Below are positions 1 through 13,716 of a stretch of DNA of 13,716 bases, piece by piece (position 1 is the first letter of the stretch; every line of letters starts with the position of its first letter). Source of the DNA: a virus (Duplodnaviria; Heunggongvirae; Uroviricota; Caudoviricetes). The position numbers and the translations under genes are program-made. The notes under the pieces are model-generated. The model saw nothing but the letters and a program-made list of their open reading frames with translations. It had not been told where the DNA came from and did no database searches. The DNA is taken from positions 1 to 13,716 of IMG/VR virus record IMGVR_UViG_2737471853_000004, one strand, 5' to 3'.

Positions 1-69
1 AATAAAACCGGCATAGGCCACGCTATTTCATGGCTCTGGTTTTCTCTATTAAGGAGCTTCTGTAATGGC

Positions 70-588
70 TTATTCGATCAGCAATTCAGGCTGCGTTACC
101 TGCATGATGTGCTCATGCTCCACAGCCAGAACACGTTTCTCTTTCTTCCGCTCGTTCATCAACCGGCTGCCGATCGTGCCCTTCAACTTTGACCGCGTTT
201 CTTTGATGGCGTAGCGGTGCTGCATTTCTTCTCCCATCGCCATGCGTCGGCTTAGCTGCTCGGCCATCCAGTTAAAGGCATTGATGTAGCACTCCTTTAC
301 TGCGGCAGCTGTTTTTCCAGTGAACCCCATCACGAGCATCATGCATCCATCGCGTGTGATGTTATACATGGGCTGAACATCGCCATTTTTATCAATGAAA
401 TCAATGGGCGCAAAATTGCGCAGGGTGAAGTCGTCGGAGCATTTCAGGTTACGTATGGCGCGCAAAACGTCTTTGTGTCGCTTGCCAAAGTAGTCAGCCA
501 CCTTGAGTGATGTCGTGATTATCTTGTTGTCGAGGGTCGTGACCATTTCGCGGAAGTCGAAGGCCGGAATAACTGACGGATTATTCAT
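70..588 (-). CDS. rha: Rha-family phage regulatory protein (antirepressor-like)
   Basis: Translation contains TTSLKVADYFGKRHKDVLRAI and LVMGFTGKTAAAVKECYINAFN, which fit the Phage_pRha family as I recall it. Start trimmed to the Met of MNNPSVIPAF (ATG at 586-588); the longer ORF-track extension runs through the upstream terminator hairpin. Confidence 0.6.
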   Translation of the reverse strand: MNNPSVIPAFDFREMVTTLDNKIITTSLKVADYFGKRHKDVLRAIRNLKCSDDFTLRNFAPIDFIDKNGDVQPMYNITRDGCMMLVMGFTGKTAAAVKECYINAFNWMAEQLSRRMAMGEEMQHRYAIKETRSKLKGTIGSRLMNERKKEKRVLAVEHEHIMQVTQPELLIE

Positions 589-730
589 AGCGTCTTTACC
601 TTTTAGAAAGTGAGCCTGTCTCACAGAAAAGCCGCCCGAGAGAGGTCGCCACCTATAACGGCATTTCTCAGGCTCGCTTACTGAAAGGCTCTCGTTAATA
701 TGCGCGTGAGATGCGCTGTGAAATTCAGAT

Positions 731-755
731 ATAAAAAAGCCCCGCATCGCGAGGC
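731..755 (-). terminator. Candidate intrinsic terminator downstream of Rz
   Basis: On the minus strand, GCCUCGC-GAU-GCGGGGC (7 bp stem with one G-U, 3-nt loop) is followed by UUUUUUAUAU. The loop is tight, so confidence is moderate. Confidence 0.4.
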
Positions 756-787
756 TCATTAAATGGACTTTGTGATTTGCAAAAAAA

Positions 788-1225
788 TTATTTCAGGCAT
801 TGCGTCCTGATGTACTCCTGCAGGTAGTTAACCTGCGCGGTTATCCTGTCGATTCCACTTCGGAGACGGTAATAATTGAGTTCAGCATCTGCTGTAAGTC
901 CTGGGCTTTCTCCATCGCCCATGCCGCTGGCTCCGGTCGTTGACTTTGCACAGGTGGCGGCGACTTGCAGGCGCTTACGACCAGCAGAAACATCAGCACG
1001 GAGACTTTCGATAGTCGCGTTAGCATCAGCAAGCTCCTTTGTGTATCTGGCGTCGAGTTCTGCTACATCACGTTGACGCTTCTGCATGTCAGCGATGATG
1101 GATGTGGCTTTATCACGCTGATCTTTGTAGGCGATGGCGTTATCACGGTAATGATTAACAGCCCATGACAGACAGACGATGATGCAGATAACCAGAGCGG
1201 AGATAATCGCGGTGACTCTGCTCAT
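788..1225 (-). CDS. Rz: Rz-type i-spanin
   Basis: N-terminus [31 protein letters not shown] matches lambda Rz as I recall it; the remainder is diverged. Overlaps the R stop and sits directly after the endolysin, as in lambda. Confidence 0.85.
841..1032 (-). CDS. Rz1: Rz1-type o-spanin embedded in Rz in an alternative frame
   Basis: ORF lies wholly inside Rz. It has a lipoprotein-like signal with lipobox VSAC followed by a Pro-rich stretch ([13 protein letters not shown]), the typical architecture of embedded Rz1 genes. Confidence 0.7.
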
Positions 1226-1698
1226 ACCTCAATCTCTCTGACCGTTCCGCCTGCTTCTTTGAATTTTGCAATCAGGCTGTCAGCCTTATGCTCGAACTGA
1301 CCATAACCAGCACCCGGCAGTGAAGCCCAGATATTGCTGCAACGGTCGATTGCCTGACGGATATCACCACGATCAATCATCGGCAAAGCGCCACGCTCCT
1401 TAATCTGCTGCAATGCCACAGCATCCTGGCTTTTCGGAGAGAAGTCTTTCAGGCCAAGCTGCTTACGGTAGGCATCCCACCAACGGGAAAGAAGCTGGTA
1501 GCGTCCGGCGGCTGTTGATTTGAGTTTGGGGTTTAGCGTGACAAGTTTGCGAGGGTGATCGGAGTAATCAGTGAATAGCTCTCCTCCTACAATGACGTCA
1601 TAACCATGATTTCTGGTTTTCTGACGTCCGTTATCAGTTCCCTCTGACCACGCCAGCATATCGAGGAACGCCTTACGTTGATTATTGATTTCCACCAT
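1222..1698 (-). CDS. R: Endolysin R (lambda-type lytic transglycosylase)
   Basis: The 158-aa translation [39 protein letters not shown]... is recognisable as lambda R essentially along its whole length. Confidence 0.9.
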
Positions 1699-2005
1699 CT
1701 TCTACTCCGGCTTTTTTAGCAGCGAAGCGTTTGATAAGCGAACCAATCGAGTCAGTACCGATGTAGCCGATGAACACGCTCGTTATATAAGCGAGATTGC
1801 TACTTAGTCCGGCGAAGTCGAGAAGGTCACGAATGAACCAGGCGATAATGGCGCACATCGTTGCGTCGATTACTGTTTTTGTAAACGCACCGCCATTATA
1901 TCTGCCGCGAAGGTACGCCATTGCAAACGCAAGGATTGCCCCGATGCCTTGTTCCTTTGCCGCGAGAATGGCGGCTAACAGGTCATGTTTTTCTGGCATC
2001 TTCAT
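1682..2005 (-). CDS. S: Holin S (S107/S105 dual-start)
   Basis: 107 aa beginning [20 protein letters not shown] with the dual-start Met-Lys-Met motif. The upstream CCCCTTATTGGGG hairpin (sdi-like) and RBS match the lambda S leader. Confidence 0.9.
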
Positions 2006-2247
2006 GTCTTAGCCCCAATAAGGGGATTTGCTCTATTTAATTAGGAATAAGGTCGATTACTGATAGAACAAATCCAGGCTACTGTGTTTAGTAATCAGAT
2101 TTGTTCGTGACCGATATGCACGGGCAAAACGGCAGGAGGTTGTTAGCGCGACCTCTTGCCACCCGCTTTCACGAAGGTCATGTGTAGAAGTCCGCAGCGT
2201 AACTATCACTGATGAATTCAGGATAGCCAGTGGCTACGGCTCAGTTA

Positions 2248-2323
2248 TGGTGCTGTTTAACGGACTTGAACCGCTACCCATTCGCTTACAAGGCGACCGC
2301 TCTACCATTGGAGCTAAAACAGC
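2248..2323 (-). tRNA. tRNA-like gene, anticodon UGU by hand folding (Thr)
   Basis: The minus strand reads GCTGTTT-TA-GCTC-CAATGGTA-GAGC-G-GTCGC-CTTGTAA-GCGAA-TGGGT-AGCGG-TTCAAGT-CCGTT-AAACAGC-A-CCA. It has a 7-bp acceptor stem, a canonical D arm, a GGTTCAAGTCC T arm and an encoded CCA. The anticodon stem has one mismatch, so the isotype call is tentative. Confidence 0.55.
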
Positions 2324-2328
2324 ATGTT

Positions 2329-2403
2329 TGGCGGGACAGCGTGGACTCGAACCACGATAAGAAGGTTAACAGCCTTCCGTAATCACCTTTATACGACTGA
2401 CCC
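2329..2403 (-). tRNA. tRNA-like gene, anticodon GUU by hand folding (Asn); possibly degenerate
   Basis: The minus strand reads GGGTCAG-TC-GTAT...TTAC-G-GAAGG-CTGTTAA-CCTTC-TTAT-CGTGG-TTCGAGT-CCACG-CTGTCCC-G-CCA. T arm and anticodon arm are perfect and CCA is encoded. The acceptor stem has one T-T mismatch and the D stem is only 3 bp. Confidence 0.5.
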
Positions 2404-2466
2404 AAATAAAAAAAGCCACCGTTGCAACTTAAGAGTCACTAACGGCAGCTTACCTTCTAATTATGG

Positions 2467-2985
2467 CTAAATGGATAATTGCATGTCAAGGCTTTTAACA
2501 GCAACATGCTTAACTTTCTCAACACGTTTACGCATTTTGAAAGCATTTTGCATTGGCTGGTACAAAACAAATAACGATGCTTTCAGGATGTCGTCAATTT
2601 CGTTTCTACAGGTTGCCAGTGAAGGTTTTCTCCATCCCTCGCCACCACGTCCACACATCTTGCGTGGCTTTGCAGTCGCGTGATAGTAGGATGCAATTGC
2701 TCGCTTAGATGAACCATGAGCGTAGTAGCTGAGGAGGATGCCAAAGGCTTTTTTGTCAATGTACATGACGGAATCGACGACCTGAGAAATCAACATTCCA
2801 TCATCATCATTGCACATTGGCCTTGTCATAACTCTTCCCGGCTCTACGCTCTCCATGAACTTCGCTATTACGCTGCTCATGCGCTTTTCCAGACGACCTG
2901 AATAAACCCATGCGCCCCACAGTTCAAGCCAGCCATTCAGCCACTCGTGCTGCTCTTTGGTGAGGTTTAGTTCTCTTATGCCCAC
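2467..2985 (-). CDS. Late-gene antiterminator Q, non-lambda Q family
   Basis: 172 aa at the Q position between the nin region and the lysis cassette. Contains LELWGAWV and [13 protein letters not shown], which resemble the WGAW and Cys/Asp-rich motifs I recall from 933W-type Q proteins. It is not lambda Q. Confidence 0.65.
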
Positions 2986-3647
2986 GCGCCTTCTCCCTGT
3001 ACCTGAATCAATGTGAGGTTTCCGCAGAACACTGCGCCGGTATCGATATACATCTGGTTGGCAAACTTGAGTGGTTTCACTGCTGGCGTATGACCAAAGA
3101 TGAACGTGTCAGCTCCTTTGATTTCTTTCACGATCCCGTCTTGTGAGTTGCTGATTCGTTCGCGGTTCCAGATTACCTGCTGATGATCAACTGGCTTTCC
3201 AAATTCGTATTCGTCACAAGGATAATCGGCGTGGCAGATGACATATTTTTTACCTTCGCTCACCAGTTCGATGATTAACGGAAGTTCATCTGCTTTATGG
3301 GCAAGAGCTTTAGCCAGAATTTCTTTGTCGTAATCGAGATTAAAGAACCAGCCACCGCCATTAAACAGCCAGTGATTGACGTTTCCACGCTCTGATAAGC
3401 CATCAATCATCATTTGCTCATGGTTTCCACGTACAGCTCGGAACCAGGGGAATGTGATTAATTCCAGACATTCGACGTTCTCTGTACCGCGATCGACCAA
3501 ATCGCCAACCGAGATAAGCAGGTCTTTTTTGGTGTCGAATCCCATCGTCTCCAGTTTTTTCATCAGGTTCGTGTAGCATCCGTGCAGATCGCCAACTACC
3601 CAAATATTTCGGTATTTGCTGCCATCAATTTTTTCGTAATAGCGCAT
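2976..3647 (-). CDS. ninI: Ser/Thr protein phosphatase (lambda PP, NinI)
   Basis: [29 protein letters not shown]...GNHE carries the metallophosphatase GDxHG/GDxxDRG/GNHE motifs and is near-identical to lambda PP as I recall it. Start trimmed to MRYYEK (ATG 3645-3647). Confidence 0.9.
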
Positions 3648-3831
3648 CTCTTTCACTCCATCCGCGATGAACCATGAGAACGTCGTTGACGATGGCGTGC
3701 ATTTTCCCGTCTTTATCATCAACGTATTTTCTGACCGTACCGCGACTACATTTCAGTCTGCGTGCTACTTCTGTCTGGTTTCCGTATGCTTCAACGAGCA
3801 TGTCTGGAATGGTTTTTACTGAGAACGTCAT
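3625..3831 (-). CDS. ninH: NinH (small HTH protein)
   Basis: 68 aa [37 protein letters not shown]... matches lambda NinH. Its ATG overlaps the ninG stop as ATGA. Confidence 0.85.
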
Positions 3832-4439
3832 GCGGCCTCACTTCTGCTATTTCGCAGGTCTTTGAGTTTCTGTTGGTACTCTGCCTTGATCGCCTTGCAC
3901 TCTTCGATAGTCCAGCGATGGCGGCTATGGTTTGATTCGATTTCGTCTACTGCTTCCTGCCCTATGCGATTAATCAGTTCGACGCGATACGGAACGAGAT
4001 TTCCGCTTTTATGCTGGTTGCACACCACGCATTGCTTGTGAATATTGCGTTCATCAAATCGGAGTTGAGGTGCCGCAGCAGTTGTCCGGTAATGTCCGGC
4101 ATCCCACTGAGCAGACGTGAGCGTTCCGCACGAGATACATGGTAAGTCGCGGTCTCTTTCTCTGATGAAGGCGTTTACGGCTTGCTGGGCTTGTTTAATC
4201 CAGTAACTGCGGGGCTTTAAGGCGAGTTTTCGAATCTTCAGTTTATCTTTCTGTTTCTGCTCCTCTCGTCGTCGTTTCTTCTCTGCTGCTTTTTCCGCTT
4301 TTTCGCGTTCTTTGCTTCGTCGTTCGAGTGCTATCTTTGTTCCACACTCTGGAGAGCACCACCACTGATTAGCGAATGCAGGGTGAAACCATTCCCGACA
4401 TTCATCGTTTTTACATCGTCTTCGCGCTGGTTTAGCCAT
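3828..4439 (-). CDS. ninG: NinG / Rap recombination endonuclease
   Basis: 203 aa [33 protein letters not shown]... with Cys-rich clusters, matching lambda NinG (Rap). Confidence 0.9.
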
Positions 4440-4608
4440 CGTCTTCTTCCTCGTACATTGAGCTATTCGGATCGCTCATCAGTTCTGCGAAGCAGTGCTC
4501 ACACACGTGAACTTCCAGCACATGCAGCTTCTGACCGCAGTTAGCGCACGTTAAAGCCCGCTCGACGCTTTCTTTCTGGTATTGGAGGGATTGGGATGGG
4601 CTAAGCAT
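4432..4608 (-). CDS. ninF: NinF
   Basis: Not in the ORF track (58 aa). Hand translation of the minus strand gives [58 protein letters not shown], matching lambda NinF. Its stop overlaps the ninG ATG (ATGGCTAA). Confidence 0.8.
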
Positions 4609-4960
4609 TATTGGCGTCCTGCATCATGAGAAAGACAATCATGGCGGCGCGGAGGGAATTTTCATGTATAGCTCGCTTAGATTTACAGTCGGCCACACCA
4701 CGTGCACCCCACTCGTCTTCATCGAGATTGATAATGCTAATCCTGTACTTCTCAATAATCGGCCATGAGGCGCTAGGATCATTGCAGTAGTCAGGTAAAG
4801 GGTTTAATGGCTCAAAAGTTGTATCAGCATTTCCGTAATACCATTTGTTGGTGTTATTCCCTGATGTTTCCGGTTTACATGCCCAAAGGCCTTTAAAAAT
4901 TATGTCTCCTACCATTCTGTTAATTTCAAAATCACTTAACTGTGAATAATCCATTGTCAT
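4601..4960 (-). CDS. Hypothetical protein between ninE and ninF (NinX-like position)
   Basis: ORF occupies the slot where P22-like nin regions carry ninX; lambda has no gene here. Start is ambiguous: the ATG at 4958-4960 overlaps the ninE stop as ATGA, while the ATG at 4952-4954 has GAGGAA about 7 nt upstream. No catalytic motif recognised. Confidence 0.5.
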
Positions 4961-5133
4961 TTCCTCGCACGATGTCTTAGCCACCGGATATCCCACAGGT
5001 GAGCCGTGTAGTTGAAGGTTTTTACGTCAGATTCTTTTGGGATTGGCTTGCGTTTATTTCTGGAGCGTTTCGTTGGAAGGTATTTGCAGTTTTCGCAGAT
5101 GATGTCGGTGATACTTCGTCGCTGTCGTCTCAT
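4957..5133 (-). CDS. ninE: NinE
   Basis: [52 protein letters not shown]... matches lambda NinE. Start trimmed to MRRQRR (ATG 5131-5133), overlapping the methylase stop. Confidence 0.8.
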
Positions 5134-5657
5134 GCCGTCCTCCTGACGCCCTGCCCGATCGCCATCAATGCCGCTTTGGATACGGTAGTAAACATCCGTC
5201 GAGGACTGATGAACGGTCGCCAAATCAGCAGCATTGAGCCTTTGCTGTTTCCCTTCTTCTCCAGCCCCGTCGATGGTTCGATAAAATTAATCCGTCCATC
5301 AGTGATGATGCGAACTTCGTCAACGCTCTCCAGAGCCTTGCTGAACCATCCGACTGACATATCCTCTGGCACAAGCATCACTACCGTCTGTCGCTGTTGT
5401 ATGCACTGCTCAGCGGCTTTTTCTACCCACGGCCTGATATTGCTGTACGGTGGGTTATTCCAGATTGCACCGTGGCTTACCCACTCAGAATTGAGCGCGT
5501 CGTCGGCCTCAGTTAACCAGTGAGCGCACAGAGCATTTTTGTCGCTCGCTGCCGAATCCAGCCAGAATCCAAACTCAATATCCAGTGCATCAAAAAGCCA
5601 AAGCGGCGTTTGCCAGCAGTCCTTGTCGTGTGCTGGCGTATTTGATTTGATAGTCAT
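5130..5657 (-). CDS. Phage DNA N6-adenine methyltransferase (Dam-like, orphan)
   Basis: Contains the NPPY catalytic motif (IWNNPPYS) and a [12 protein letters not shown]-terminal region typical of the phage N6-adenine methylase family. Start trimmed to MTIKSN (ATG 5655-5657), overlapping the ninB stop. It sits where lambda has ninC/ninD. Confidence 0.8.
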
Positions 5658-6094
5658 GCAGCCCGATCTCCCCATCGCGCTTTCCATTCGAGAGCCAGTC
5701 GCGCTTCGTCTGACCACTTAACGCCACGCTCTGTACCGAATGCCTGTATAAGCTCTAATAGCTCCGCAAATTCGCTTACACGCATCCTGCTGGTTGACTG
5801 GCCTATTACCACAAAGCCATTCCCGGCAAGGTTAGGAACAACGTCCTGCTGCTTTAATGCAGCTGTAAAAACGCACTTCCAGCTTTCTGCATCCAGCCAG
5901 CGACCATGCCATTCAACCTGACGAGAGACGTCACCAAGGCAAGCCCAAAGCTTTCGATTCTGGTCTAAGCTGCGGTTGCGTTCCTGAATGGTTACTACGA
6001 TTGGTTTGGTTGGGTCTGGAAGGATTTGCTGTACTGCGTGAATAGCATTTTGCTGAAGTTCTGGAGATCGAATTTCAAAGGTCAGTTTTTTCAT
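5654..6094 (-). CDS. ninB: NinB (Orf recombination mediator)
   Basis: MKKLTFEIRSPELQQNAIHAVQQILPDPTKPIVVTIQERNRSLDQNRKLWACLGDVSRQ... is near-identical to lambda NinB. Start trimmed to MKKLTF (ATG 6092-6094) with GAGGGAAG upstream; the ORF-track extension begins at a TTG. Confidence 0.9.
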   Translation of the reverse strand: MKKLTFEIRSPELQQNAIHAVQQILPDPTKPIVVTIQERNRSLDQNRKLWACLGDVSRQVEWHGRWLDAESWKCVFTAALKQQDVVPNLAGNGFVVIGQSTSRMRVSEFAELLELIQAFGTERGVKWSDEARLALEWKARWGDRAA

Positions 6095-6110
6095 GACTTC
6101 CCTCTCCCCC

Positions 6111-6142
6111 AAATAAAAAGGCCTGCGATTACCAGCAGGCCT
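6111..6142 (-). terminator. Intrinsic terminator between ren and ninB (tR2-like)
   Basis: On the minus strand, AGGCCUGC-ugguaauc-GCAGGCCU (perfect 8-bp GC-rich stem, 8-nt loop) is followed by UUUUAUUU. The position matches lambda tR2. Confidence 0.6.
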
Positions 6143-6167
6143 GTTATTAGCTCAGTGATGTAGATAG

Positions 6168-6458
6168 TCATTGCCTTACCTCCATAAGCGCCCTATTAAT
6201 AAACGCCGTCATTGGATTTGCACATCCCCACCCCGTACCATCTTGATTTCTTTTAATTGGCTCCTTCTTCACTTTGCGTTTTGCATAAATAACCGTCTTC
6301 CACTTACGCTCAACAACACTCAAATGTCCTTGTTTCACCATATGCCTTGCTGCTTGAGCGATTCTGTTATTTGGTATTCCGGTGATCAGTGCTAATTCAT
6401 GTGGGGAGAATTGTTCATGAGTTTTCAGATATTCCAGGATGATTTCTTTTCCAGTCAC
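6168..6458 (-). CDS. ren: Ren-like protein
   Basis: 96 aa starting MTGKEIILEYLKTHEQFSPHELALITG, similar in its N-terminus, length and position to lambda Ren. The start codon appears to be GTG (6456-6458) with AGGAG 6 nt upstream, overlapping the DnaC-like stop. Confidence 0.65.
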   Translation of the reverse strand: MTGKEIILEYLKTHEQFSPHELALITGIPNNRIAQAARHMVKQGHLSVVERKWKTVIYAKRKVKKEPIKRNQDGTGWGCANPMTAFINRALMEVRQ

Positions 6459-7300
6459 GATCTGCTCCTGTAACTATCCCATGTAAACGCAAGAGTGCAC
6501 CCGCCGCCATCATTCATCCTGTCAATAACACGCTCACCAATGAATGCAGACAGTTCATCTTTGCTCTGGTTGCTAATCAGGATTGTTGGCTTCATGCGCT
6601 CGTAGCGGGTGTTGATGATTTCGAACATGATCATCTTTTCCGCCTCGCTTCCAAACTGCACACCAACCTCATCGATAATTAGCAGGTCAGGTTTAGTGAA
6701 CTGTCGGATCACTTCATCCTCTGTGCGGGTGGAGTTTTTCGACCATGTTGATTTATATTCTCTGGCAATTTTCAGCGCCGTTGTGAAAATAGCTGAGCTT
6801 TGATGTTCCGTAATTGCGTGCCGGGCGATAGCCAGTGCAAGATGATTCTTTCCAGTACCAGGCTTTCCACACATAACCAGCCCACCGCCTTTCTGTAACC
6901 TCTCAGGCCATTTGCTGGCGTATGCCTGACACACCCTGAGCACTCTCTTTGCATCGTCGTTGACTGGCTCGTAGTTCTGTAGTGTGCAACCCTTGAATCG
7001 TTCAGGAATATCAAGATTATTCAACAGAAACTCGACATTGCGCTTACGTGATTCCTCGTCGATTTTAATCTTCTCTGCCTGTAGCCGAATAAGCTCATCT
7101 CTCATGCATTCCGGGCATTCGCTAGGTCTTGAGGCAAACTTAATTGGCCCAGTCGAGTAACGGTTACGCTGCTCAAACTCACCATGTTTTTCACAGATGC
7201 CAGTGCCAATTTCTACAGATGTATGCTCGATAGCAATTGGCGGAGAACTCAATTCTGCAAGTTTTTTCTCCAGTTGGGAGATCTTTTCATCCAGCGTCAT
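6455..7300 (-). CDS. DnaC-like replicative helicase loader (AAA+ ATPase)
   Basis: Walker A GKPGTGKNHLA, Walker B LLIIDEVG, and an N-terminal Cys-rich region. Start trimmed to MTLDEK (ATG 7298-7300) with AGGAG 5 nt upstream. It occupies the lambda P position. Confidence 0.85.
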   Translation of the reverse strand: MTLDEKISQLEKKLAELSSPPIAIEHTSVEIGTGICEKHGEFEQRNRYSTGPIKFASRPSECPECMRDELIRLQAEKIKIDEESRKRNVEFLLNNLDIPERFKGCTLQNYEPVNDDAKRVLRVCQAYASKWPERLQKGGGLVMCGKPGTGKNHLALAIARHAITEHQSSAIFTTALKIAREYKSTWSKNSTRTEDEVIRQFTKPDLLIIDEVGVQFGSEAEKMIMFEIINTRYERMKPTILISNQSKDELSAFIGERVIDRMNDGGGCTLAFTWDSYRSRS

Positions 7301-7302
7301 GT

Positions 7303-8145
7303 TCACTCCTGCGCCCATGAAGGCATTTCAGTTTGTCCGTAATCTTTGGTGGCAAAGTTTTCCTGCATAGCTCGATGCTGCGGCCTCGGTTGAGATTTCC
7401 CCTTTGGAGTCTTGGGCTCAAAAATCCCCTGCCAACCACTGGCGATGCTCTGGTTTATAATTTCTTCAGGTGTATATCCCTTCTCCAGACTTCTGCTTAG
7501 AACGTTGATAGCCTGAGTGACGCTTTGCTTAGACTTGATCGACTTACCTATCTCCTTACGATAGGTAACCCACGACAACCATGTTTCTGCTGATAACCAA
7601 TCAGGCAACTCTGTTTCTAGCGGGTCGAACTTCTGAGAAACTTTTTTGGGGGATATAGGGGGTTTATTAATATTTTCTTTTGTCTTTAAAGAATGTCTTT
7701 TGTGTGTCTCTAACTTCGAGACATTGAGTGTCTCTAATTTGGAGACATTTTTTGTCTCTAACTTCGAGACAAAGTTGCTAACTTGGAGACACTTGCTGAA
7801 TTGCCACGCAGATACCTCCCTGTTTACACCGATTTGATTTCCATCCATAAACAGGCAATTCATTGAAATCAGTTCTTTTTTAGCCTTGTTAACATTCTGC
7901 CTTGATAGTCCTGTTAACTGAGCAATTTGCTCATCGGCTATTCGATCTGTTTTCTTATTGAATCCATATGTTTTCCGGACGTAGGCCAGCATAACTTTCA
8001 ACTGGCGAGCGGTTAAATCGGCACTTGCGATAGCTTCCAGCAGCTCGTTAGCGAATCTGGTGTAACCATCATCGATATCAGCCACTCTTCGCTCCTGTTC
8101 AACAGGTTCACTCTTCGGCAGGTAAAATACTTCAGCCAGGCTCAT
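7303..8145 (-). CDS. O: Replication initiator O-like protein (origin-binding N-domain, non-lambda C-domain)
   Basis: The N-terminal region DDGYTRFANELLEAIASADLTARQLKVMLAYVRKTYGFNKKTDRI parallels the lambda O N-domain. The central VSKLET repeats are encoded by the iterons. Start chosen at MSLAEV (ATG 8143-8145) with GGAGG 6 nt upstream. Confidence 0.8.
   Translation of the reverse strand: MSLAEVFYLPKSEPVEQERRVADIDDGYTRFANELLEAIASADLTARQLKVMLAYVRKTYGFNKKTDRIADEQIAQLTGLSRQNVNKAKKELISMNCLFMDGNQIGVNREVSAWQFSKCLQVSNFVSKLETKNVSKLETLNVSKLETHKRHSLKTKENINKPPISPKKVSQKFDPLETELPDWLSAETWLSWVTYRKEIGKSIKSKQSVTQAINVLSRSLEKGYTPEEIINQSIASGWQGIFEPKTPKGKSQPRPQHRAMQENFATKDYGQTEMPSWAQE
7705..7791. repeat. Replication-origin iterons, four about 19-bp inverted-symmetry repeats at 24-bp spacing
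   Basis: TGTCTCTAACTTCGAGACA at 7705-7723, TGTCTCTAATTTGGAGACA at 7729-7747, TGTCTCTAACTTCGAGACA at 7753-7771, and TTGCTAACTTGGAGACA at 7775-7791. An AT-rich tract at 7640-7700 flanks them on the side downstream in the O reading direction, the same arrangement as lambda ori inside O. Confidence 0.75.
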
Positions 8146-8776
8146 TTCCAACCTCCGCATCAAAGCATTGGGCTTCAAGAGACTTAACCATCACCACACT
8201 GCCATCTGTATTAATAACTATCGATGAGTTATATTTGCTTATCAGTTGCTTCGCGTAATCAATTCCGGCGCGAATAAGGAAATTTTTCACCGCAGGAAGA
8301 TGACCAACTACACTACCCAGACCTTGCTCTATAAGCTCCTCATTAAGATCAAGCTCATTTTCATGGCGAAAAGAAATGAATGAGTCGTAAATTGCGTATT
8401 CTGCCGTCTCGCCATTTCTTTCAGGGCCAACCAGCGCCCTTATTTCATTTAGAGATTCATAAAGATCATTATCTTCAAGCTTGAAAAACTCTCGATTATC
8501 ACTAAGCCTCTCTTTTGCAAAGGCTTTATGAATAAGTTTTTCATCTGATGCGGGATTATTTGAATGAAAGGCTGCTATCACCTTAAATGGCTTAGGAACG
8601 CCAGTAGAGGCTGAAATTTCTTTAGCCCTAACTTCTGGTGAATGCTTAGTCATCCCAATCTTATAAATTCCCGGCATGCACTCATTCGAAAGCACATAAA
8701 CAAAGCCATTTGATTTAAAATCATCTGGCACCTTCATGCTCTTCAGAACCTGGAATTTGTCATTTTCGTATGTCAT
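8132..8776 (-). CDS. T5orf172 / GIY-YIG-like domain protein, function unknown
   Basis: GFVYVLSNECMPGIYKIGMTKHSPEVRAKEI...KLIHKAFAKERLSDNREFFK fits the T5orf172 motif pattern as I recall it. AGGAG lies 5 nt upstream of the ATG. It is inserted between cII and O, where lambda has no gene, and its last 14 nt overlap the O start. Confidence 0.5.
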   Translation of the reverse strand: MTYENDKFQVLKSMKVPDDFKSNGFVYVLSNECMPGIYKIGMTKHSPEVRAKEISASTGVPKPFKVIAAFHSNNPASDEKLIHKAFAKERLSDNREFFKLEDNDLYESLNEIRALVGPERNGETAEYAIYDSFISFRHENELDLNEELIEQGLGSVVGHLPAVKNFLIRAGIDYAKQLISKYNSSIVINTDGSVVMVKSLEAQCFDAEVGNEPG

Positions 8777-8810
8777 AATTACTCCTGTGGATTGATCCAG
8801 TCTTTCTACA

Positions 8811-9089
8811 TCAGGCCTCGAAGAATTCGCCGTTCTTCGGGGCTTTTTCTTTTGTCAGCATTCTGGCTACTTTCTTAGCCAGTTCAGCCAACTCCTCGTC
8901 TTCAACACCCCATTCAAGAACAGCCAGAAGCATGGCCATCTTTGGGATAAAGCTGTCTTTCCATCGCGAAATTTGCGATTCATTGATCCCTAATGCATCA
9001 GCAACCTTTCGCTGACCACGTACAGCAATTCGATTCAGGATGTTGCTTGTAATTGCATTCGCTTTCTTGCGAGTACTTGTAAGTTGCAT
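8811..9089 (-). CDS. cII: CII-like transcriptional activator
   Basis: MQLTSTRKKANAITSNILNRIAVRGQRKVADALGINESQISRWKDSFIPKMAMLLAVLEWGV parallels lambda CII (SQISRWK and MLLAVLEWGV conserved), though the protein is diverged. The upstream leader TTGTTATCTAAGGAAATACTTACATATG is the lambda cII leader. Start trimmed to this ATG (9087-9089). Confidence 0.8.
   Translation of the reverse strand: MQLTSTRKKANAITSNILNRIAVRGQRKVADALGINESQISRWKDSFIPKMAMLLAVLEWGVEDEELAELAKKVARMLTKEKAPKNGEFFEA
8814..8853 (+). terminator. Intrinsic terminator antisense to the cII 3' end (oop-like)
   Basis: Plus strand CCUCGAAGAA-uucgccg-UUCUUCGGGG (10-bp stem with one G-U, 7-nt loop) followed by CUUUUUCUUUU. It lies antisense to the cII 3' end, as the oop terminator does in lambda. 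Confidence 0.6.
9043..9056 (+). promoter_or_regulatory. Candidate CII-binding site TTGC-N6-TTGC (PRE-like)
   Basis: TTGCTTGTAATTGC on the plus strand, inside the cII N-terminal coding region and oriented toward cro and cI. The tetrad repeat is perfect, but the -10 is not clear and the spacing to the cII ATG differs from lambda. Confidence 0.4.
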
Positions 9090-9168
9090 ATGTAAGTATT
9101 TCCTTAGATAACAATTGATTGAATGTATGCAAATAAATGCATACACCATAGGTGTGGTTTAATTTGAT

Positions 9169-9200
9169 GCCCTTTTTCAGGGCTGGGATGTGTAAGAGCG
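9169..9200 (-). promoter_or_regulatory. nutR (boxA and boxB)
   Basis: The minus strand reads CGCTCTTACACAT (boxA, 9188-9200) and GCCCTGAAAAAGGGC (boxB, 9169-9183), between cro and cII. Confidence 0.8.
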
Positions 9201-9207
9201 GGGTTAT

Positions 9208-9417
<210 letters not shown>

Positions 9418-9432
9418 TTAGTACATGCAACT

Positions 9433-9502
9433 ATTATCACCGCTAGAGGTAAAATAGTCAACACGCACGGTGTTAGATATTTATCCCTTGCGGTGATAGA
9501 TT
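9433..9502. promoter_or_regulatory. Right operator OR1-OR2-OR3 with divergent promoters PR and PRM
   Basis: OR1 at 9435-9451 (TATCACCGCTAGAGGTA), OR2 at 9459-9475 (CAACACGCACGGTGTTA), OR3 at 9482-9498 (TATCCCTTGCGGTGATA). PR -35 TTGACT and -10 GATAAT are on the minus strand; PRM -10 TAGATT is at 9497-9502 ahead of the cI ATG at 9509. Confidence 0.9.
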
Positions 9503-9505
9503 TAA

Positions 9506-10222
<717 letters not shown>

Positions 10223-10253
10223 TTGTTTTATTTTTCACGTAATAGGATGATTT

Positions 10254-11015
10254 ATGACACAGTTTCAACTTGCATTAATCGCTAGAGAAGTTGATGGAGA
10301 AGTCATCCATCTTCGCACCAAAGACGGATACATCAATGCCACCGCGATGTGCAAGTCTGCGGGGAAGCTACTTGCTGACTATACACGACTAAAAACAACA
10401 CAAGATTTTTTTGATGAATTATCACGCGATATGGGGATTCCCATATCGGAGTTAATTCAATCATTTAAAGGCGGAAGAGCAGAGAATCAAGGGACTTGGG
10501 TTCATCCAGACATCGCAATTAATTTAGCTCAGTGGCTATCTCCAAAATTTGCAGTGCAAGTATCGAGATGGGTGCGTGAGTGGATGTCAGGTGAAAGAGC
10601 GCCTGCCGAACTCCCTATCCACCTTAAGCGGTATATGACAAACCGAGGCAGAGTTCCTCATACGCACTTTTCTATGCTTAATGAACTGACGTTTAACTTG
10701 GTTGCGCCACTTGAACAGGCCGGATATACGCTGCCAGAAAAAATGGTCCCTGATATTTCAGAGGGTAGGGTTTTCTCGCAATGGCTCCGTGACAACCGGG
10801 GGGTTGAGCCGAAGACATTCCCAACATATAACCATGAGTACCCAGATGGCCGGACATTCCCGGTACGTCTATACCCAAACGAATATCTTGCAGATTTCAA
10901 ACAACACTTCAACGAAGTGTGGCTGCCTCAGTACGCTCCTAAATATTTTGCTGAACGAGACCAAAGGGCATTGACGTTGATTGAGAAAATCATGCTACCT
11001 GACCTTGATTCCTAA
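10254..11015 (+). CDS. KilA-N domain protein in the rexAB position (candidate BstA-like abortive-infection protein)
   Basis: The N-terminal roughly 110 aa (GEVIHLRTKDGYINATAMCKSAGK...GTWVHPDIAINLAQWLSPKFAVQVSRWV) fit the KilA-N fold pattern; the C-terminal roughly 140 aa are unassigned. The gene starts 31 nt after the cI stop on the same strand and is followed by a terminator. Confidence 0.6.
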   Translation: MTQFQLALIAREVDGEVIHLRTKDGYINATAMCKSAGKLLADYTRLKTTQDFFDELSRDMGIPISELIQSFKGGRAENQGTWVHPDIAINLAQWLSPKFAVQVSRWVREWMSGERAPAELPIHLKRYMTNRGRVPHTHFSMLNELTFNLVAPLEQAGYTLPEKMVPDISEGRVFSQWLRDNRGVEPKTFPTYNHEYPDGRTFPVRLYPNEYLADFKQHFNEVWLPQYAPKYFAERDQRALTLIEKIMLPDLDS

Positions 11016-11021
11016 ATGTTA

Positions 11022-11046
11022 TTCCCGGCCAAGAGCCGGGTTTTCT
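11022..11046 (+). terminator. Intrinsic terminator ending the cI / KilA-N transcription unit
   Basis: CCCGGC-caaga-GCCGGG (6-bp GC stem, 5-nt loop) followed by TTTTCTTT, 7 nt after the stop codon. Confidence 0.6.
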
Positions 11047-11204
11047 TTGCCTCACGATCCCCCTCACCCAAGAACACATAACCAATTGTATTTATTTGAA
11101 AATTAATAGATACAACTCACTAAACATCGCAATTCAGATCTCTCGATCACCTTCCCAATCCACACAACCCTGCAAAGAATAAATCTATATAAAAACATAC
11201 AGAT

Positions 11205-11267
11205 AACCATCTGCGGTGATAAATTATCTCTGGCGGTGTTGACATAAATACCACTGGCGGTGATACT
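11205..11267 (+). promoter_or_regulatory. Left operator OL3-OL2-OL1 with promoter PL
   Basis: OL3 AACCATCTGCGGTGATA at 11205-11221, OL2 TATCTCTGGCGGTGTTG at 11225-11241, OL1 TACCACTGGCGGTGATA at 11249-11265. PL -35 TTGACA at 11239-11244 and -10 GATACT at 11262-11267, reading toward N. Confidence 0.9.
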
Positions 11268-11307
11268 AAGCACATCAGCAGGATGCACTGACCACCATTG
11301 AAGGTGA

Positions 11308-11338
11308 GGCTCTTAAAAATTTAGCCCTGAAGAAGGGC
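11308..11338 (+). promoter_or_regulatory. nutL (boxA-like and boxB)
   Basis: boxB GCCCTGAAGAAGGGC at 11324-11338 is preceded by GGCTCTTAAAAA (boxA-like, with a first-base difference from the CGCTCTTA consensus). Confidence 0.8.
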
Positions 11339-11448
11339 AGCATTCAAAGCAGAAAGCTTTGAGTAGCGCGAAATGCAGCTGCAAGACAGCAACCGTGGAG
11401 ATAAGCATCACGGCGCGTTACTCAAAGCTAACTGACAGGAGAATCCAG

Positions 11449-11775
11449 ATGGATGCACAAACACGCCGCCGCGAACGTCGCGCAGAGAAACAGGCTCAAT
11501 GGAAAGCAGCAAATCCCCTGTTGGTTGGGGTAAGCGCAAAACCAGTTAACCGCCCTATTCTCTCGCCGAATCGCAAACCGAAATCACGAGTAGAAAGCGC
11601 ACTGAATCCGATAGACCTTACGGTGCTGGCTGAATACCACGAACAGATTGAAAGCAACCTGCAACGTATTGAGCGCAAGAATCAGCGCACATGGTACAGC
11701 AAGCCACGCAGTGAAATGGGTGTGACTTGTGTTGGTCGCCAGAAAATGAAATTAGGCAGCAAACCACTTATTTGA
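11449..11775 (+). CDS. N: Antiterminator N
   Basis: MDAQTRRRERRAEKQAQWKAANPLLVGVSAKPVNRPIL..., with the arginine-rich boxB-binding motif; lambda N-like but diverged toward the C-terminus. Start trimmed to the ATG at 11449 with a GGAG RBS. Confidence 0.9.
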   Translation: MDAQTRRRERRAEKQAQWKAANPLLVGVSAKPVNRPILSPNRKPKSRVESALNPIDLTVLAEYHEQIESNLQRIERKNQRTWYSKPRSEMGVTCVGRQKMKLGSKPLI

Positions 11776-11785
11776 GGACTGATAC

Positions 11786-12028
11786 ATGAGAGTAAAAACT
11801 ATGGGCGCAAGCCCATTAAGTGGTCGTATTTTTCAAGGAACATTAAACACTGAAAAAGGAATGTGGGTGGGAAAGAAAGAAGATGTAACCGAACAGGCAG
11901 TTAAGGCAGTAGCTGAACACATGATGATAAAAGACCAGAAATATGCATACGAAACGAAGGATGGCAAATGGCTGATAATAAGTCATCAAATAGTTGATAA
12001 ATTACCAGAAGAGTTTATTGCTGATTAA
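11786..12028 (+). CDS. Hypothetical 80-aa protein immediately downstream of N
   Basis: GAGGA lies 7 nt upstream of the ATG, 11 nt after the N stop. No family recognised. It occupies the region where lambda carries ral and sieB. Confidence 0.5.
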   Translation: MRVKTMGASPLSGRIFQGTLNTEKGMWVGKKEDVTEQAVKAVAEHMMIKDQKYAYETKDGKWLIISHQIVDKLPEEFIAD

Positions 12029-12156
12029 AATTATTTTGGCATAAACAACAGAATAAACACTGCACTGTGTATTCATTCCAACGAGTGAATACACGGAGCA
12101 ATGTCGCTCGTAACTAAACAGGAGCCGACTTGTTCTGATTATTGGAAATCTTCTTT

Positions 12157-12183
12157 GCCCTCCAGTGTGAGGGCGATTTTTTA
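12157..12183 (+). terminator. Intrinsic terminator (tL2-like) upstream of ea10
   Basis: GCCCTC-cagtgt-GAGGGC (6-bp stem) followed by GATTTTTTAT. Confidence 0.55.
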
Positions 12184-12202
12184 TCTATGAGGATATGAAT
12201 AG

Positions 12203-12571
12203 ATGTCAAACATCAAAAAATACATCATTGATTACGACTGGAAAGCATCAATAGAAATTGAAATCGACCATGACGTAATGACAGAGGAAAAACTTCACCA
12301 GATTAATAATTTCTGGTCAGACTCTGAATACCGACTCAATAAACACGGCTCTGTATTAAATGCTGTATTAATCATGCTGGCGCAACATGCTCTGCTTATA
12401 GCAATTTCAAGCGACTTAAATGCATATGGTGTTGTGTGTGAGTTCGACTGGAATGATGGAAATGGTCAGGAAGGATGGCCTCCAATGGATGGTAGCGAAG
12501 GAATAAGAATTACCGATATCGATACATCAGGAATATTTGATTCAGATGATATGACTATCAAAGCCGCCTGA
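12203..12571 (+). CDS. ea10: Ea10-like protein
   Basis: 122 aa MSNIKKYIIDYDWKASIEIEIDHDVMTEEKLHQINNFW... with an acidic C-terminus. I recall it as lambda Ea10, and the position upstream of cIII agrees. Confidence 0.7.
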   Translation: MSNIKKYIIDYDWKASIEIEIDHDVMTEEKLHQINNFWSDSEYRLNKHGSVLNAVLIMLAQHALLIAISSDLNAYGVVCEFDWNDGNGQEGWPPMDGSEGIRITDIDTSGIFDSDDMTIKAA

Positions 12572-12594
12572 GCGCAGCGTTACCGCATACCAAT

Positions 12595-12620
12595 AACGCT
12601 TCACTCGAGGCGTTTTTCGT
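12595..12620 (+). terminator. Candidate hairpin plus U-tract between ea10 and cIII
   Basis: AACGCUUC-acuc-GAGGCGUU (8-bp stem with one G-U) followed by UUUCGUUAU. The U-tract is interrupted, so this may be an attenuator or RNA-processing structure rather than a full terminator. Confidence 0.35.
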
Positions 12621-12643
12621 TATGTATAAATAAGGAGCACACC

Positions 12644-12808
12644 ATGCAATATGCCATTGCAGGGTGGCCTGTTGCTGGCTGCCCTTCCGAATCTTTACTT
12701 GAACGAATCACCCGTAAATTACGTGACGGATGGAAACGCCTTATCGACATACTTAATCAGCCAGGAGTCCCAAAAAATGGATCAAACACTTATGGCTATC
12801 CAGACTAA
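12644..12808 (+). CDS. cIII: CIII (FtsH inhibitor)
   Basis: Not listed separately in the ORF track. Hand translation from the ATG at 12644 (AAGGAG RBS) gives [54 protein letters not shown], which is lambda CIII. Confidence 0.85.
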   Translation: MQYAIAGWPVAGCPSESLLERITRKLRDGWKRLIDILNQPGVPKNGSNTYGYPD

Positions 12809-12920
12809 ATTCACTATCGCCACTTTTATTGGCGATGAAAAGATGTTTCGTGAGGCCGTCGACGCTTATAAAAAATGGATATTAATACTGAAACTGAGAT
12901 CAAGCAAAAGCATTCACTAA
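12777..12920 (+). CDS. kil: Kil (host-killing, FtsZ inhibitor)
   Basis: [47 protein letters not shown] (47 aa) matches lambda Kil. It overlaps the cIII 3' end in another frame, as in lambda. Confidence 0.8.
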
Positions 12921-13027
12921 TCCCCTTTCCTGTTTTCCTAATCAGCCTGGCATTTCGCGGGCGATATTTTCACAGCCATTTTCAGGAGTTCAGCCATGAA
13001 CGCTTATTACATTCAGGATCGTCTTGA
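12875..13027 (+). other. Short ORF encoding a Gam-long N-terminal-like peptide, out of frame with gam
   Basis: Hand translation gives [50 protein letters not shown]. Its first roughly 35 aa resemble the N-terminal extension of lambda GamL, but the frame diverges just before the Gam ATG. Confidence 0.35.
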
Positions 13028-13292
13028 GGCTCAGAGCTGGGCGCGTCACTACCAGCAGATCGCCCGTGAAGAGAAAGAGGCAGAACTGGCAGACGACCTG
13101 GAAAAGGGTCTGCCCCAGCATTTGTTTGAATCGCTATGCATCGATCATTTGCAACGCCACGGGGTCAGCAAAAAAGCCATTACCCGTGCGTTCGATGACG
13201 ATGTTGAGTTTCAGGAGCGCATGGCAGAACACATCCGGTACATGGTTGAAACCATTGCTCACCACCAGGTTGATATTGATTCAGAGGTATAA
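12996..13292 (+). CDS. gam: Gam (RecBCD inhibitor), short GamS form
   Basis: 98 aa [56 protein letters not shown]... matches lambda GamS. GGAG RBS upstream. Confidence 0.9.
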
Positions 13293-13297
13293 AACGG

Positions 13298-13716
13298 ATG
13301 AGTACAGCACTCGCAACGCTGGCTGGGAAGCTGGCTGAACGTGTCGGCATGGATTCTGTCGACCCACAGGAACTGATCACCACTCTTCGCCAGACGGCAT
13401 TTAAAGGTGATGCCAGCGATGCGCAGTTCATCGCATTGTTGATCGTCGCCAACCAGTACGGCCTTAATCCGTGGACGAAAGAAATTTACGCCTTCCCTGA
13501 TAAGCAGAACGGCATCGTTCCGGTGGTGGGCGTTGATGGCTGGTCCCGCATCATCAATGAAAACCAGCAGTTTGATGGCATGGACTTTGAGCAGGACAAT
13601 GAATCCTGCACATGCCGGATTTACCGCAAGGACCGTAATCATCCGATCTGCGTTACCGAGTGGATGGATGAATGCCGCCGCGAACCATTCAAAACCCGCG
13701 AAGGCAGAGAAATCAC
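13298..13716 (+). CDS. bet: Bet (Red-beta single-strand annealing protein), 3'-truncated by window end
   Basis: Hand translation from the ATG at 13298 gives MSTALATLAGKLAERVGMDSVDPQELITTLRQTAFKGDASDAQFIALLIVANQYGLNPWTKEIYAFPDKQNG..., which is lambda Bet. The ORF runs off the end of the window. Confidence 0.9.
   Translation, partial: MSTALATLAGKLAERVGMDSVDPQELITTLRQTAFKGDASDAQFIALLIVANQYGLNPWTKEIYAFPDKQNGIVPVVGVDGWSRIINENQQFDGMDFEQDNESCTCRIYRKDRNHPICVTEWMDECRREPFKTREGREI

Follow-up and report, generated by a model that had tools for sequence, protein, structure and literature searches.

The pairing of a tRNA-Asn and a tRNA-Thr gene in the late leader of phage 21-type lambdoid phages is already known and widely annotated. 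[quoted passage not shown] A 351-nt query around the two tRNAs found matches in 115 phage records, including BTP1, Sf6, phage 21, SfI, SPN9CC and vB_SosS_Oslo and mostly annotated with tRNA-Asn plus tRNA-Thr, as well as in 1133 of 5426 complete E. coli genomes. The pair found in phage 21, Sf6, BTP1, SfI and many other phages shows 96-99% identity. With annotations in dozens of phage records and a presence in about a fifth of complete E. coli genomes, the cassette is ordinary as a finding, and its value lies in being a clean example of temperate-phage tRNAs wired to the late switch.

The copy described here lies in a stretch of 13,716 nucleotides of a Caudoviricetes virus (IMG/VR record IMGVR_UViG_2737471853_000004, positions 1 to 13,716), referred to as the window. 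Its two genes are almost certainly genuine, expressed elongator tRNA genes and members of the known cassette. For the locus as a whole, the explanation that we hold with considerable confidence is a phage 21/Sf6-type late-switch tRNA cassette, dependent on Q and serving the supply or replacement of isoacceptors.

Arrangement of the late leader

Read along the minus strand, the locus runs from a phage 21-type Q gene through PR', tR', tRNA-Asn, a 5-nt spacer, tRNA-Thr and a conserved hairpin block to lambda-type S, R and Rz genes. The original prediction had placed two tandem minus-strand tRNA genes with UGU (Thr) and GUU (Asn) anticodons between Q and S, in the leader of the late operon, and ARAGORN, Rfam and the ORF map reproduce this arrangement, with exactly the same coordinates. 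ARAGORN reported two tRNA genes in the entire 13.7-kb window, with those same anticodons: tRNA-Asn(GUU) at 2329-2403 (75 nt) and tRNA-Thr(UGU) at 2248-2323 (76 nt), both on the minus strand and separated by the spacer AACAT (2324-2328).

Upstream, the ORF map places NinI at 2976-3722 and the antiterminator gene Q at 2467-2985, both on the minus strand. The 172-aa Q product matches PF06530 (Phage_antitermQ, 90.3 bits) and is 86% identical in amino acids to Q of phage 21; no similarity to lambda Q was detectable in the protein comparison. The late promoter PR' (TTGACA, 18-nt spacer, CATAAT; 2460-2489, minus strand), with 11 of 12 matches in the promoter scan, is embedded in the 3' end of the Q gene and aligns with the annotated PR' of Sf6 and the PR'/QBE of phage 21. 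No other sigma-70-like site was found in the scan of 1950-2650, a scan that weak promoters could escape. In the PR' spacer, the direct repeat ATTATCCA/TTTAGCCA (2479-2464) takes the place of the phage 21 Q-binding element, and from this position the repeat may be regarded as a putative QBE. Alignment with the annotated phage 21 start would put the transcription start at about 2453.

PR' is followed by a long hairpin with a U-tract at 2404-2451 (minus strand), which RNA folding and homology identify as tR', the intrinsic terminator of the short PR' leader RNA. It folds at -21.5 kcal/mol (z -4.6), no shuffled sequence folded as well, and the last base of its U-tract lies one before G1 of tRNA-Asn. 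Homologous terminators are annotated in phage 21 and Sf6, the annotation in the phage 21 record (OL657228) citing Guo, Kainz & Roberts 1991 (PMID 1704887). The tRNA genes are thus located right after a 21-family Q, PR' and tR'. Beyond tRNA-Thr, BLAST and MAFFT delimit a block of 62 nt on the minus strand (2186-2247) that the window shares with lambda, phage 21 and Sf6; within it a 55-nt hairpin (2188-2242) folds at -28.2 kcal/mol (z -4.25), and in phage 21 seven consecutive Ts come after this hairpin and give it a terminator-like look. According to the ORF map, the first protein-coding genes downstream of the tRNAs in the late operon are the minus-strand lysis genes S (1682-2005), R (1222-1698) and Rz (788-1225), of lambda type, with nucleotide identities of 93% to lambda and 97.5% to Sf6 genes 60-63.

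It had further been proposed that lambda-like leader sequence resumes immediately after the 3' end of tRNA-Thr and that this marks a recombination junction. The first point holds: BLAST and MAFFT show lambda homology of 93% between 2257/2246 and 977 as well as in NinI, and none in the interval separating the two. The break in homology with lambda is therefore real, but it is not private to this phage, since Sf6 is collinear with the window over 3100-795 (97.5%). The homology with phage 21 covers 2998 to 2186, beyond which that phage continues with a pinholin module of its own. Because Sf6 is collinear and the 62 nt are common to lambda, phage 21 and Sf6, the junction at the tRNA-Thr 3' end is, as judged from these alignments, a standing boundary between a Q21-PR'-tR'-tRNA module and a lambda-type lysis module and not a private event. 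The same boundary, bridged by the common 62 nt, was found in many phages. At the junction lambda has AACAGCAC in common with the 3' end of tRNA-Thr. A tRNA relic in the lambda late leader, which this stretch brought to mind, was considered and rejected in favour of a chance extension; an Rfam search of the lambda leader at E-values up to 10 gave no tRNA-like match.

The location of the cassette exactly on a mosaic boundary invites the idea that the genes serve primarily as RNase P/RNase E signals at which the lysis mRNA is cut off from the Q-loading leader, or else as hot spots of recombination where modules are exchanged, with decoding being secondary. The conserved hairpin downstream of the cassette would fit such a role, as would chimeras of the phage tRNA-Thr with a host-like thrU, found in JLK-2012 and about 10 IMG/VR loci, which point to recombination inside the tRNA-Thr gene. 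However, the same late operon works in lambda and P22 with no tRNA at this place, the phage 21 tRNA-Thr functions as a tRNA in vivo, and the anticodons, identity elements and CCA are all conserved, which would be needless for a mere processing signal. We thus regard this explanation as scarcely credible.

Structure and conservation of the two tRNAs

Both genes fall in the tRNA family RF00005, for which the gathering score is 29 bits. The covariance model gives 61.2 bits (E-value 1.8e-11) for tRNA-Thr and 55.3 bits (7.3e-10) for tRNA-Asn, so the covariance check proposed with the original prediction, like that with ARAGORN, returns both genes over threshold and with the expected isotypes. Host thrU, thrT and asnT reach 73-75 bits with the same model (thrU 73.8, asnT 72.6), and the phage tRNAs accordingly score 12-17 bits under the host isoacceptors; with glyT at 64.9 and tyrU at 53.4 bits, the phage scores fall inside the range of bona fide host tRNAs. 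The predicted T arms, encoded CCA and anticodon loops are all present. The T-loop sequences of the pair are GGTTCAAGTCC and GGTTCGAGTCC (UUCAAGU and UUCGAGU T loops), both molecules have the D-loop GG and an encoded 3' CCA, and the anticodon loops are CTTGTAA in tRNA-Thr and CTGTTAA in tRNA-Asn, each of 7 nt with U33 and a purine at 37.

The elements recognized by the synthetases were compared with the sets given for E. coli and other bacteria (PMC9976931). tRNA-Asn carries the E. coli AsnRS set, namely G34, U35, U36, A37 and G73. tRNA-Thr, which has A73, carries G1-C72, C2-G71, G4-C69, G35 and U36 of the ThrRS set. G4-C69 and G5-C68 are listed as tRNA-Thr identity elements for bacteria (PMC9976931); the 5-68 pair is U-A in the window tRNA-Thr and A-U in host thrU and thrT. 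Relative to the majority form of the family, the window tRNA-Thr shows the compensatory change of G5-C68 to U5-A68 plus A26G, and the window tRNA-Asn differs from that of phage 21 at a single D-loop position (nt 20). The anticodon stem of tRNA-Thr consists of 4 bp plus a G27.A43 mismatch.

The original prediction had also noticed a T-T mismatch in the acceptor stem of tRNA-Asn and a short D stem, and had suggested that this gene might be a decaying copy. Both oddities are there, as U4.U69 and as a D stem of 3 bp with U13.U22, but the suggestion of decay did not survive comparison with other copies. Of 9 distinct tRNA-Asn variants 6 have U4.U69, which is the state of at least 80 among the 88 copies; other combinations at position 4/69 are rare (three copies with U-C, one with U-G and one with G-U). 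In the tRNA-Asn of Klebsiella phage Mulock, a diverged copy, compensatory double changes have occurred at 6-67, 7-66 and 28-42, and U4.U69 and U13.U22 are kept. Across 81 haplotypes, nucleotide diversity (pi) is 0.008 for tRNA-Asn, the lowest of the region and hence marking its most conserved element, against 0.06 for tRNA-Thr, a value that counts the chimeras in, and 0.15-0.37 for the flanks; spacer and flanks together range over 0.11-0.37. Decay of tRNA-Asn is not supported by these comparisons, and U4.U69 is, on the copies aligned, the majority state of the family. Part of the high identity among copies comes from recent horizontal spread and not from selection.

Covariation was counted by tRNA position in a script, MAFFT having put the one gap of tRNA-Asn inside the T stem. 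Within the close family, double changes were seen at 4 of 21 stem pairs in each tRNA, with 90-95% of cells paired; when the P1 and host tRNAs were added, 12-14 of 21 stem pairs showed double changes, and over both sets 90-96% of cells were paired. The comparison with host tRNA-Thr and tRNA-Asn genes that had been proposed was also carried out. A recent origin of the phage genes as host copies was considered and rejected, the identities being 54/78 with thrU, 56/79 with thrT and 48/78 with asnT, i.e., about 62-71%.

The array was further surveyed in 120 IMG/VR loci, selected by an anticodon/T-arm pattern, together with annotated loci. Asn-Thr arrays numbered 88 among the fetched loci, and the inter-tRNA spacer was AACAT or AATAT in 86 of 89 copies. 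tRNA-Asn was the constant first member of the array, the later members being Thr, Thr-Gly, Phe-Thr-Arg or, in phage L, an odd gene derived from tRNA-Thr. The window pair, with Asn first and Thr second and both near-identical to the type copies, belongs to this cassette.

These data bear on the view that one or both genes, and tRNA-Asn above all, are non-functional hitch-hikers of the Q21 module. Their deficit of 12-17 Rfam bits relative to the host isoacceptors, the two non-canonical stem positions of tRNA-Asn and the statement of the SfI authors that the significance of tRNA-Asn is unclear would all be compatible with relics. Nevertheless, the supposed relic is the most conserved element of the locus and never yields its first place in the array, its Mulock homolog has re-paired three stem positions and retained both odd pairs, its identity elements and T-loop/D-loop signatures are intact, and changes at 4/69 are rare. 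A relic status is in our opinion very unlikely.

Probable late expression, codon demand and possible nuclease resistance

The order of elements suggests how the tRNAs would be made. Transcripts from PR' would normally end at tR', one base short of tRNA-Asn, and Q-modified RNA polymerase would read through it, so that the late transcript would yield the two tRNAs before anything else. These would be released by RNase P and 3' trimming, with CCA already encoded, and would furnish isoacceptors during bulk late translation. Q-dependent late expression, as deduced from the position of the genes, seems to us highly probable. Expression data for these tRNAs in BTP1 were sought in the literature, and nothing useful was found.

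Two benefits of such tRNAs have to be weighed. The first is that they only raise the capacity for late-gene codons and have no part in defence evasion. ACA is used 16.6 times per 1000 codons in the 21 window genes and 17.2 times in Sf6 late genes, about twice the 8.4 of 45 K-12 genes (Fisher p 3e-5 for the window and 3e-7 for the Sf6 late genes). For Asn, E. coli K-12 has several gene copies of the tRNA, and neither the window nor the Sf6 counts revealed a clear excess of Asn codons over the host, which speaks against codon supply as the reason for that gene. The SfI paper also found no clear Asn excess, and its ACA figures, 17.3 against 7.1, agree with the window counts. ACA is read by a single host tRNA, encoded by single-copy thrU (PMC12445682), and in the phage L coat gene AAC makes up 24 of 25 Asn codons according to the phage L paper; both facts favour a supply function. 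With one host reader of ACA and about twofold phage use of that codon, supply would matter for tRNA-Thr. However, tRNAs meant merely to add capacity need not differ so widely from the host genes, nor have anticodon stems that are rebuilt exactly at nuclease contact positions.

The second benefit concerns the P2 Old nuclease, which cleaves host tRNA-ThrU after C28 and C40, in a paired CNG motif, and thereby kills cells infected by lambda (PMC12445682). Rescue from P2 Old is provided by phage tRNAs-Thr(UGU), that of phage 21 being expressly named among them, and hardly or not at all by host tRNAs-Thr, an outcome that pure codon supply does not anticipate; the rescue by the phage 21 tRNA-Thr was obtained by plasmid expression (PMC12445682). 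tRNA-Thr21 resists cleavage, at site 1 almost completely, which is credited to its shorter anticodon stem and altered pairs (PMC12445682). The anticodon arm of the window tRNA-Thr (27-43) is identical to that of phage 21, with G27.A43, U28-A42, UCG at 28-30 and CGA at 40-42, against CUG/CAG and 5 bp in the host thrU arm. The window tRNA-Thr is thus of the tRNA-Thr21 class in sequence, having UGU, the shortened stem and the altered CNG at 28-30/40-42. It differs from the phage 21 molecule at 5-68 and nt 26, and would be expected to share its Old resistance.

On this basis tRNA-Thr may act as a nuclease-resistant stand-in for host tRNA-ThrU destroyed by P2 Old, and by analogy with tRNA-Thr21 we lean towards such replacement as its main selective benefit. 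That codon supply by itself accounts for the cassette appears doubtful to us. Codon supply and nuclease-resistant replacement are not mutually exclusive. A lambda-type Gam, the trigger of P2 Old, is encoded in the window. The timing is awkward, in that Old is triggered by early Gam and the tRNAs are made late. ACA codons are present in early genes needed before Q (3 in N, 10 in O, 7 in the P-like gene), and Q itself has 1.

A similar argument can be extended to the PARIS nuclease AriB. Of the three main targets of this nuclease, two have the specificities of the window pair, Thr(UGU) and Asn(GUU), and the former is also the principal substrate of Old; for tRNA-Lys a change of U39 abolishes AriB cleavage (PMC12409363). 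The region of the AriB site reads UAAUCA in host thrU and UAAUCC in asnT, as compared with UAAGCG in the phage tRNA-Thr and UAACCU in the phage tRNA-Asn (window, phage 21, Sf6 and Mulock). Both window tRNAs therefore carry substitutions around the U36AAUC|N41 site, and each of the two phage tRNAs has rebuilt pairs at 31-39 and 29-41. The paired CNG motif, present in host thrU and asnT, is absent from both window tRNAs. A random stem would usually lack the CNG and AriB motifs anyway. The loss of CNG as a general rule for phage Asn and Thr tRNAs was examined and rejected: P1 tRNA-Thr and Mulock tRNA-Asn keep the paired motif, and P1 tRNA-Asn keeps the AriB site UAAUCA. Since P1 tRNA-Thr and Mulock tRNA-Asn retain CNG, the motif argument for tRNA-Asn has been downgraded. 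A resistant tRNA-Lys(UUU), the prime AriB target, was absent from the window in the ARAGORN search, and in the Sf6 and phage 21 stretches examined tRNA-Asn and tRNA-Thr are the only tRNA genes.

Nuclease-resistant replacement as the main selective benefit of tRNA-Asn can be put forward only tentatively, as something possible that we do not favour, and a share of tRNA-Asn in a role against Toprim nucleases is likewise rather doubtful. That the whole cassette would represent counter-defence against OLD-family Toprim tRNases, i.e., Old of P2 prophages and AriB of the PARIS system of P4 satellites, we hold to be somewhat unlikely. U4.U69 and U13.U22 might be evasion features at distal nuclease contacts. 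In the literature, no paper testing or discussing a phage 21-type tRNA-Asn in counter-defence was found. If tRNA-Asn were a second resistant replacement, this would explain the joint travel of both specificities in lambdoid, P22-like and P1 phages.

Comparison with related systems

Phage 21 (OL657228) has the same order of Q, PR', tR', tRNA-Asn and tRNA-Thr, and its tRNA-Asn and tRNA-Thr differ from those of the window by 1 and 3 nt, respectively, next to the closely related Q protein described above. It differs in having the S21 pinholin and a SAR endolysin downstream, where the window has lambda-type S-R-Rz, and in its promoter-spacer repeat, which is ATTGAGCA/AATGAGCA instead of the window repeat. 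The resemblance extends over the lysis genes in Sf6 (AF547987) and in HK446, mEp234, HF4s, Bas106, BTP1 and SfI, which share NinI, Q, PR', qut, tR', tRNA-Asn, tRNA-Thr, S, R and Rz as well as the anticodons. Only point changes separate the window from this group, at 5-68 and nt 26 of tRNA-Thr, at nt 20 of tRNA-Asn and at one base of the promoter-spacer repeat.

The original prediction had likened the placement of the genes to that of tRNA genes in Stx-type phages, and this is correct as far as the slot is concerned. In Stx phage 933W, Q, pR', qut and terminators are followed by ileZ-argN-argO and then stx2, so that the tRNAs likewise precede the first late protein genes. However, 933W carries Ile, Arg and Arg tRNAs and a Q of another family; a putative promoter for the tRNAs is annotated there, and the distance from promoter to tRNAs is about 400 nt. 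The window has neither ileZ-argN-argO nor a 933W-type Q, and the likeness is positional only; by its Q and by tRNAs that are 97-98% identical to the phage 21 and Sf6 copies, the cassette is of the phage 21/Sf6 type.

The tRNA-Lys, tRNA-Thr and tRNA-Asn of T5 neutralise AriB (PMC11464382; PMC12409363), and T5 shares with the window Thr(UGU) and Asn(GUU) tRNAs that are altered in the anticodon stem near the site of cleavage. In the window tRNAs the substitutions affect U39 and nt 41, which are the Mut1 and Mut2 positions. T5 is a large virulent phage with a tRNA array, in contrast to the temperate lambdoid phage of the window, which is without tRNA-Lys(UUU) and for which AriB resistance is a prediction from sequence. 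In P1, trnA(Asn) and trnT(Thr UGU) combine both specificities in the same order, 2 nt apart, and its tRNA-Thr is about 80% identical to that of the window. P1 differs in the genomic context of the pair and in the lineage of its tRNA-Asn, and its tRNAs preserve the cleavage motifs (paired CNG in tRNA-Thr, UAAUCA in tRNA-Asn) that both window tRNAs lack.

Atypical genes in the tRNA array

The second slot of the tRNA array, i.e., the position after tRNA-Asn that is held by tRNA-Thr in the window, phage 21 and Sf6, is occupied in phage JLK-2012 (locus L127, 803-878) by a chimeric tRNA-Thr, and our analysis revealed such genes at the same slot in further fetched tRNA-array loci (L011, L034, L085, L087, L097, L104, L105, L117, and L116). 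Nucleotides 1-26 of the chimera are those of the phage tRNA-Thr, the remainder being similar to the host thrU, and in most of these loci the next gene is tRNA-Gly(UCC). The JLK-type chimera carries two anticodon-stem mismatches (A27.C43 and C28.U42); it was not called by ARAGORN and scored 49 bits with the Rfam tRNA model. The chimeric tRNA-Thr is evidence that tRNA genes of phage and host have recombined.

In addition, phage L/ST64T carries a gene annotated as tRNA-Leu(TAA) (L125, 601-672; also present in L098), of which both the 5' and the 3' end are common to phage tRNA-Thr. Its anticodon arm is non-canonical, ARAGORN made no call for it, and its Rfam score is 42.1 bits. This gene looks like a remodelled tRNA-Thr and not a class II tRNA-Leu.

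Late promoter and leader

Inside the promoter spacer of the window, a direct repeat ATTATCCA/TTTAGCCA is found on the minus strand (2464-2479). At this position phage 21 has the Q-binding element ATTGAGCA/AATGAGCA, while Sf6 has ATTAGCCA/TTTAGCCA, whose upstream copy is a single base different from that of the window. Based on this comparison of spacer repeats, the Q specificity of the window is probably Sf6/L-like rather than 21-like.

Directly 3' of tRNA-Thr on the minus strand lies a 62-nt block (2186-2247) common to lambda, phage 21 and Sf6, which lambda carries even though it has no tRNAs. The block contains a 55-nt hairpin (2188-2242; -28.2 kcal/mol, z -4.25), and in phage 21 seven consecutive Ts come after the hairpin, so that it resembles a second terminator. 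The block is possibly the equivalent of one of lambda's tandem late terminators.

Remaining genes and comparison with phage P1

The early-left region of the window (N, ea10, cIII, kil, gam, and the start of bet) is 94-98% lambda-like and includes, on the plus strand, the lambda cIII thermoregulator element (12631-12689; Rfam, 88.5 bits) and a gam region (12875-13292). The latter matches lambda Gam in two separate reading frames (residues 1-37 and 16-138), and this split implies an insertion or deletion with respect to lambda Gam as annotated (138 aa). The ORF for the short form of Gam (98 aa; 12996-13292, plus strand) is intact. On the minus strand, a gene for a Rha-family regulatory protein (PF09669; 70-759) is located just downstream of Rz, and the nin region contains a phage Dam-type N6-adenine methyltransferase gene (PF05869; 5130-5717), accompanied by NinB and NinX homologs.

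Finally, phage P1 (L131, 601-754) carries tRNA-Asn(GUU) followed, after a 2-nt gap, by tRNA-Thr(UGU), and thus both specificities recur, in unchanged order, in an unrelated phage.
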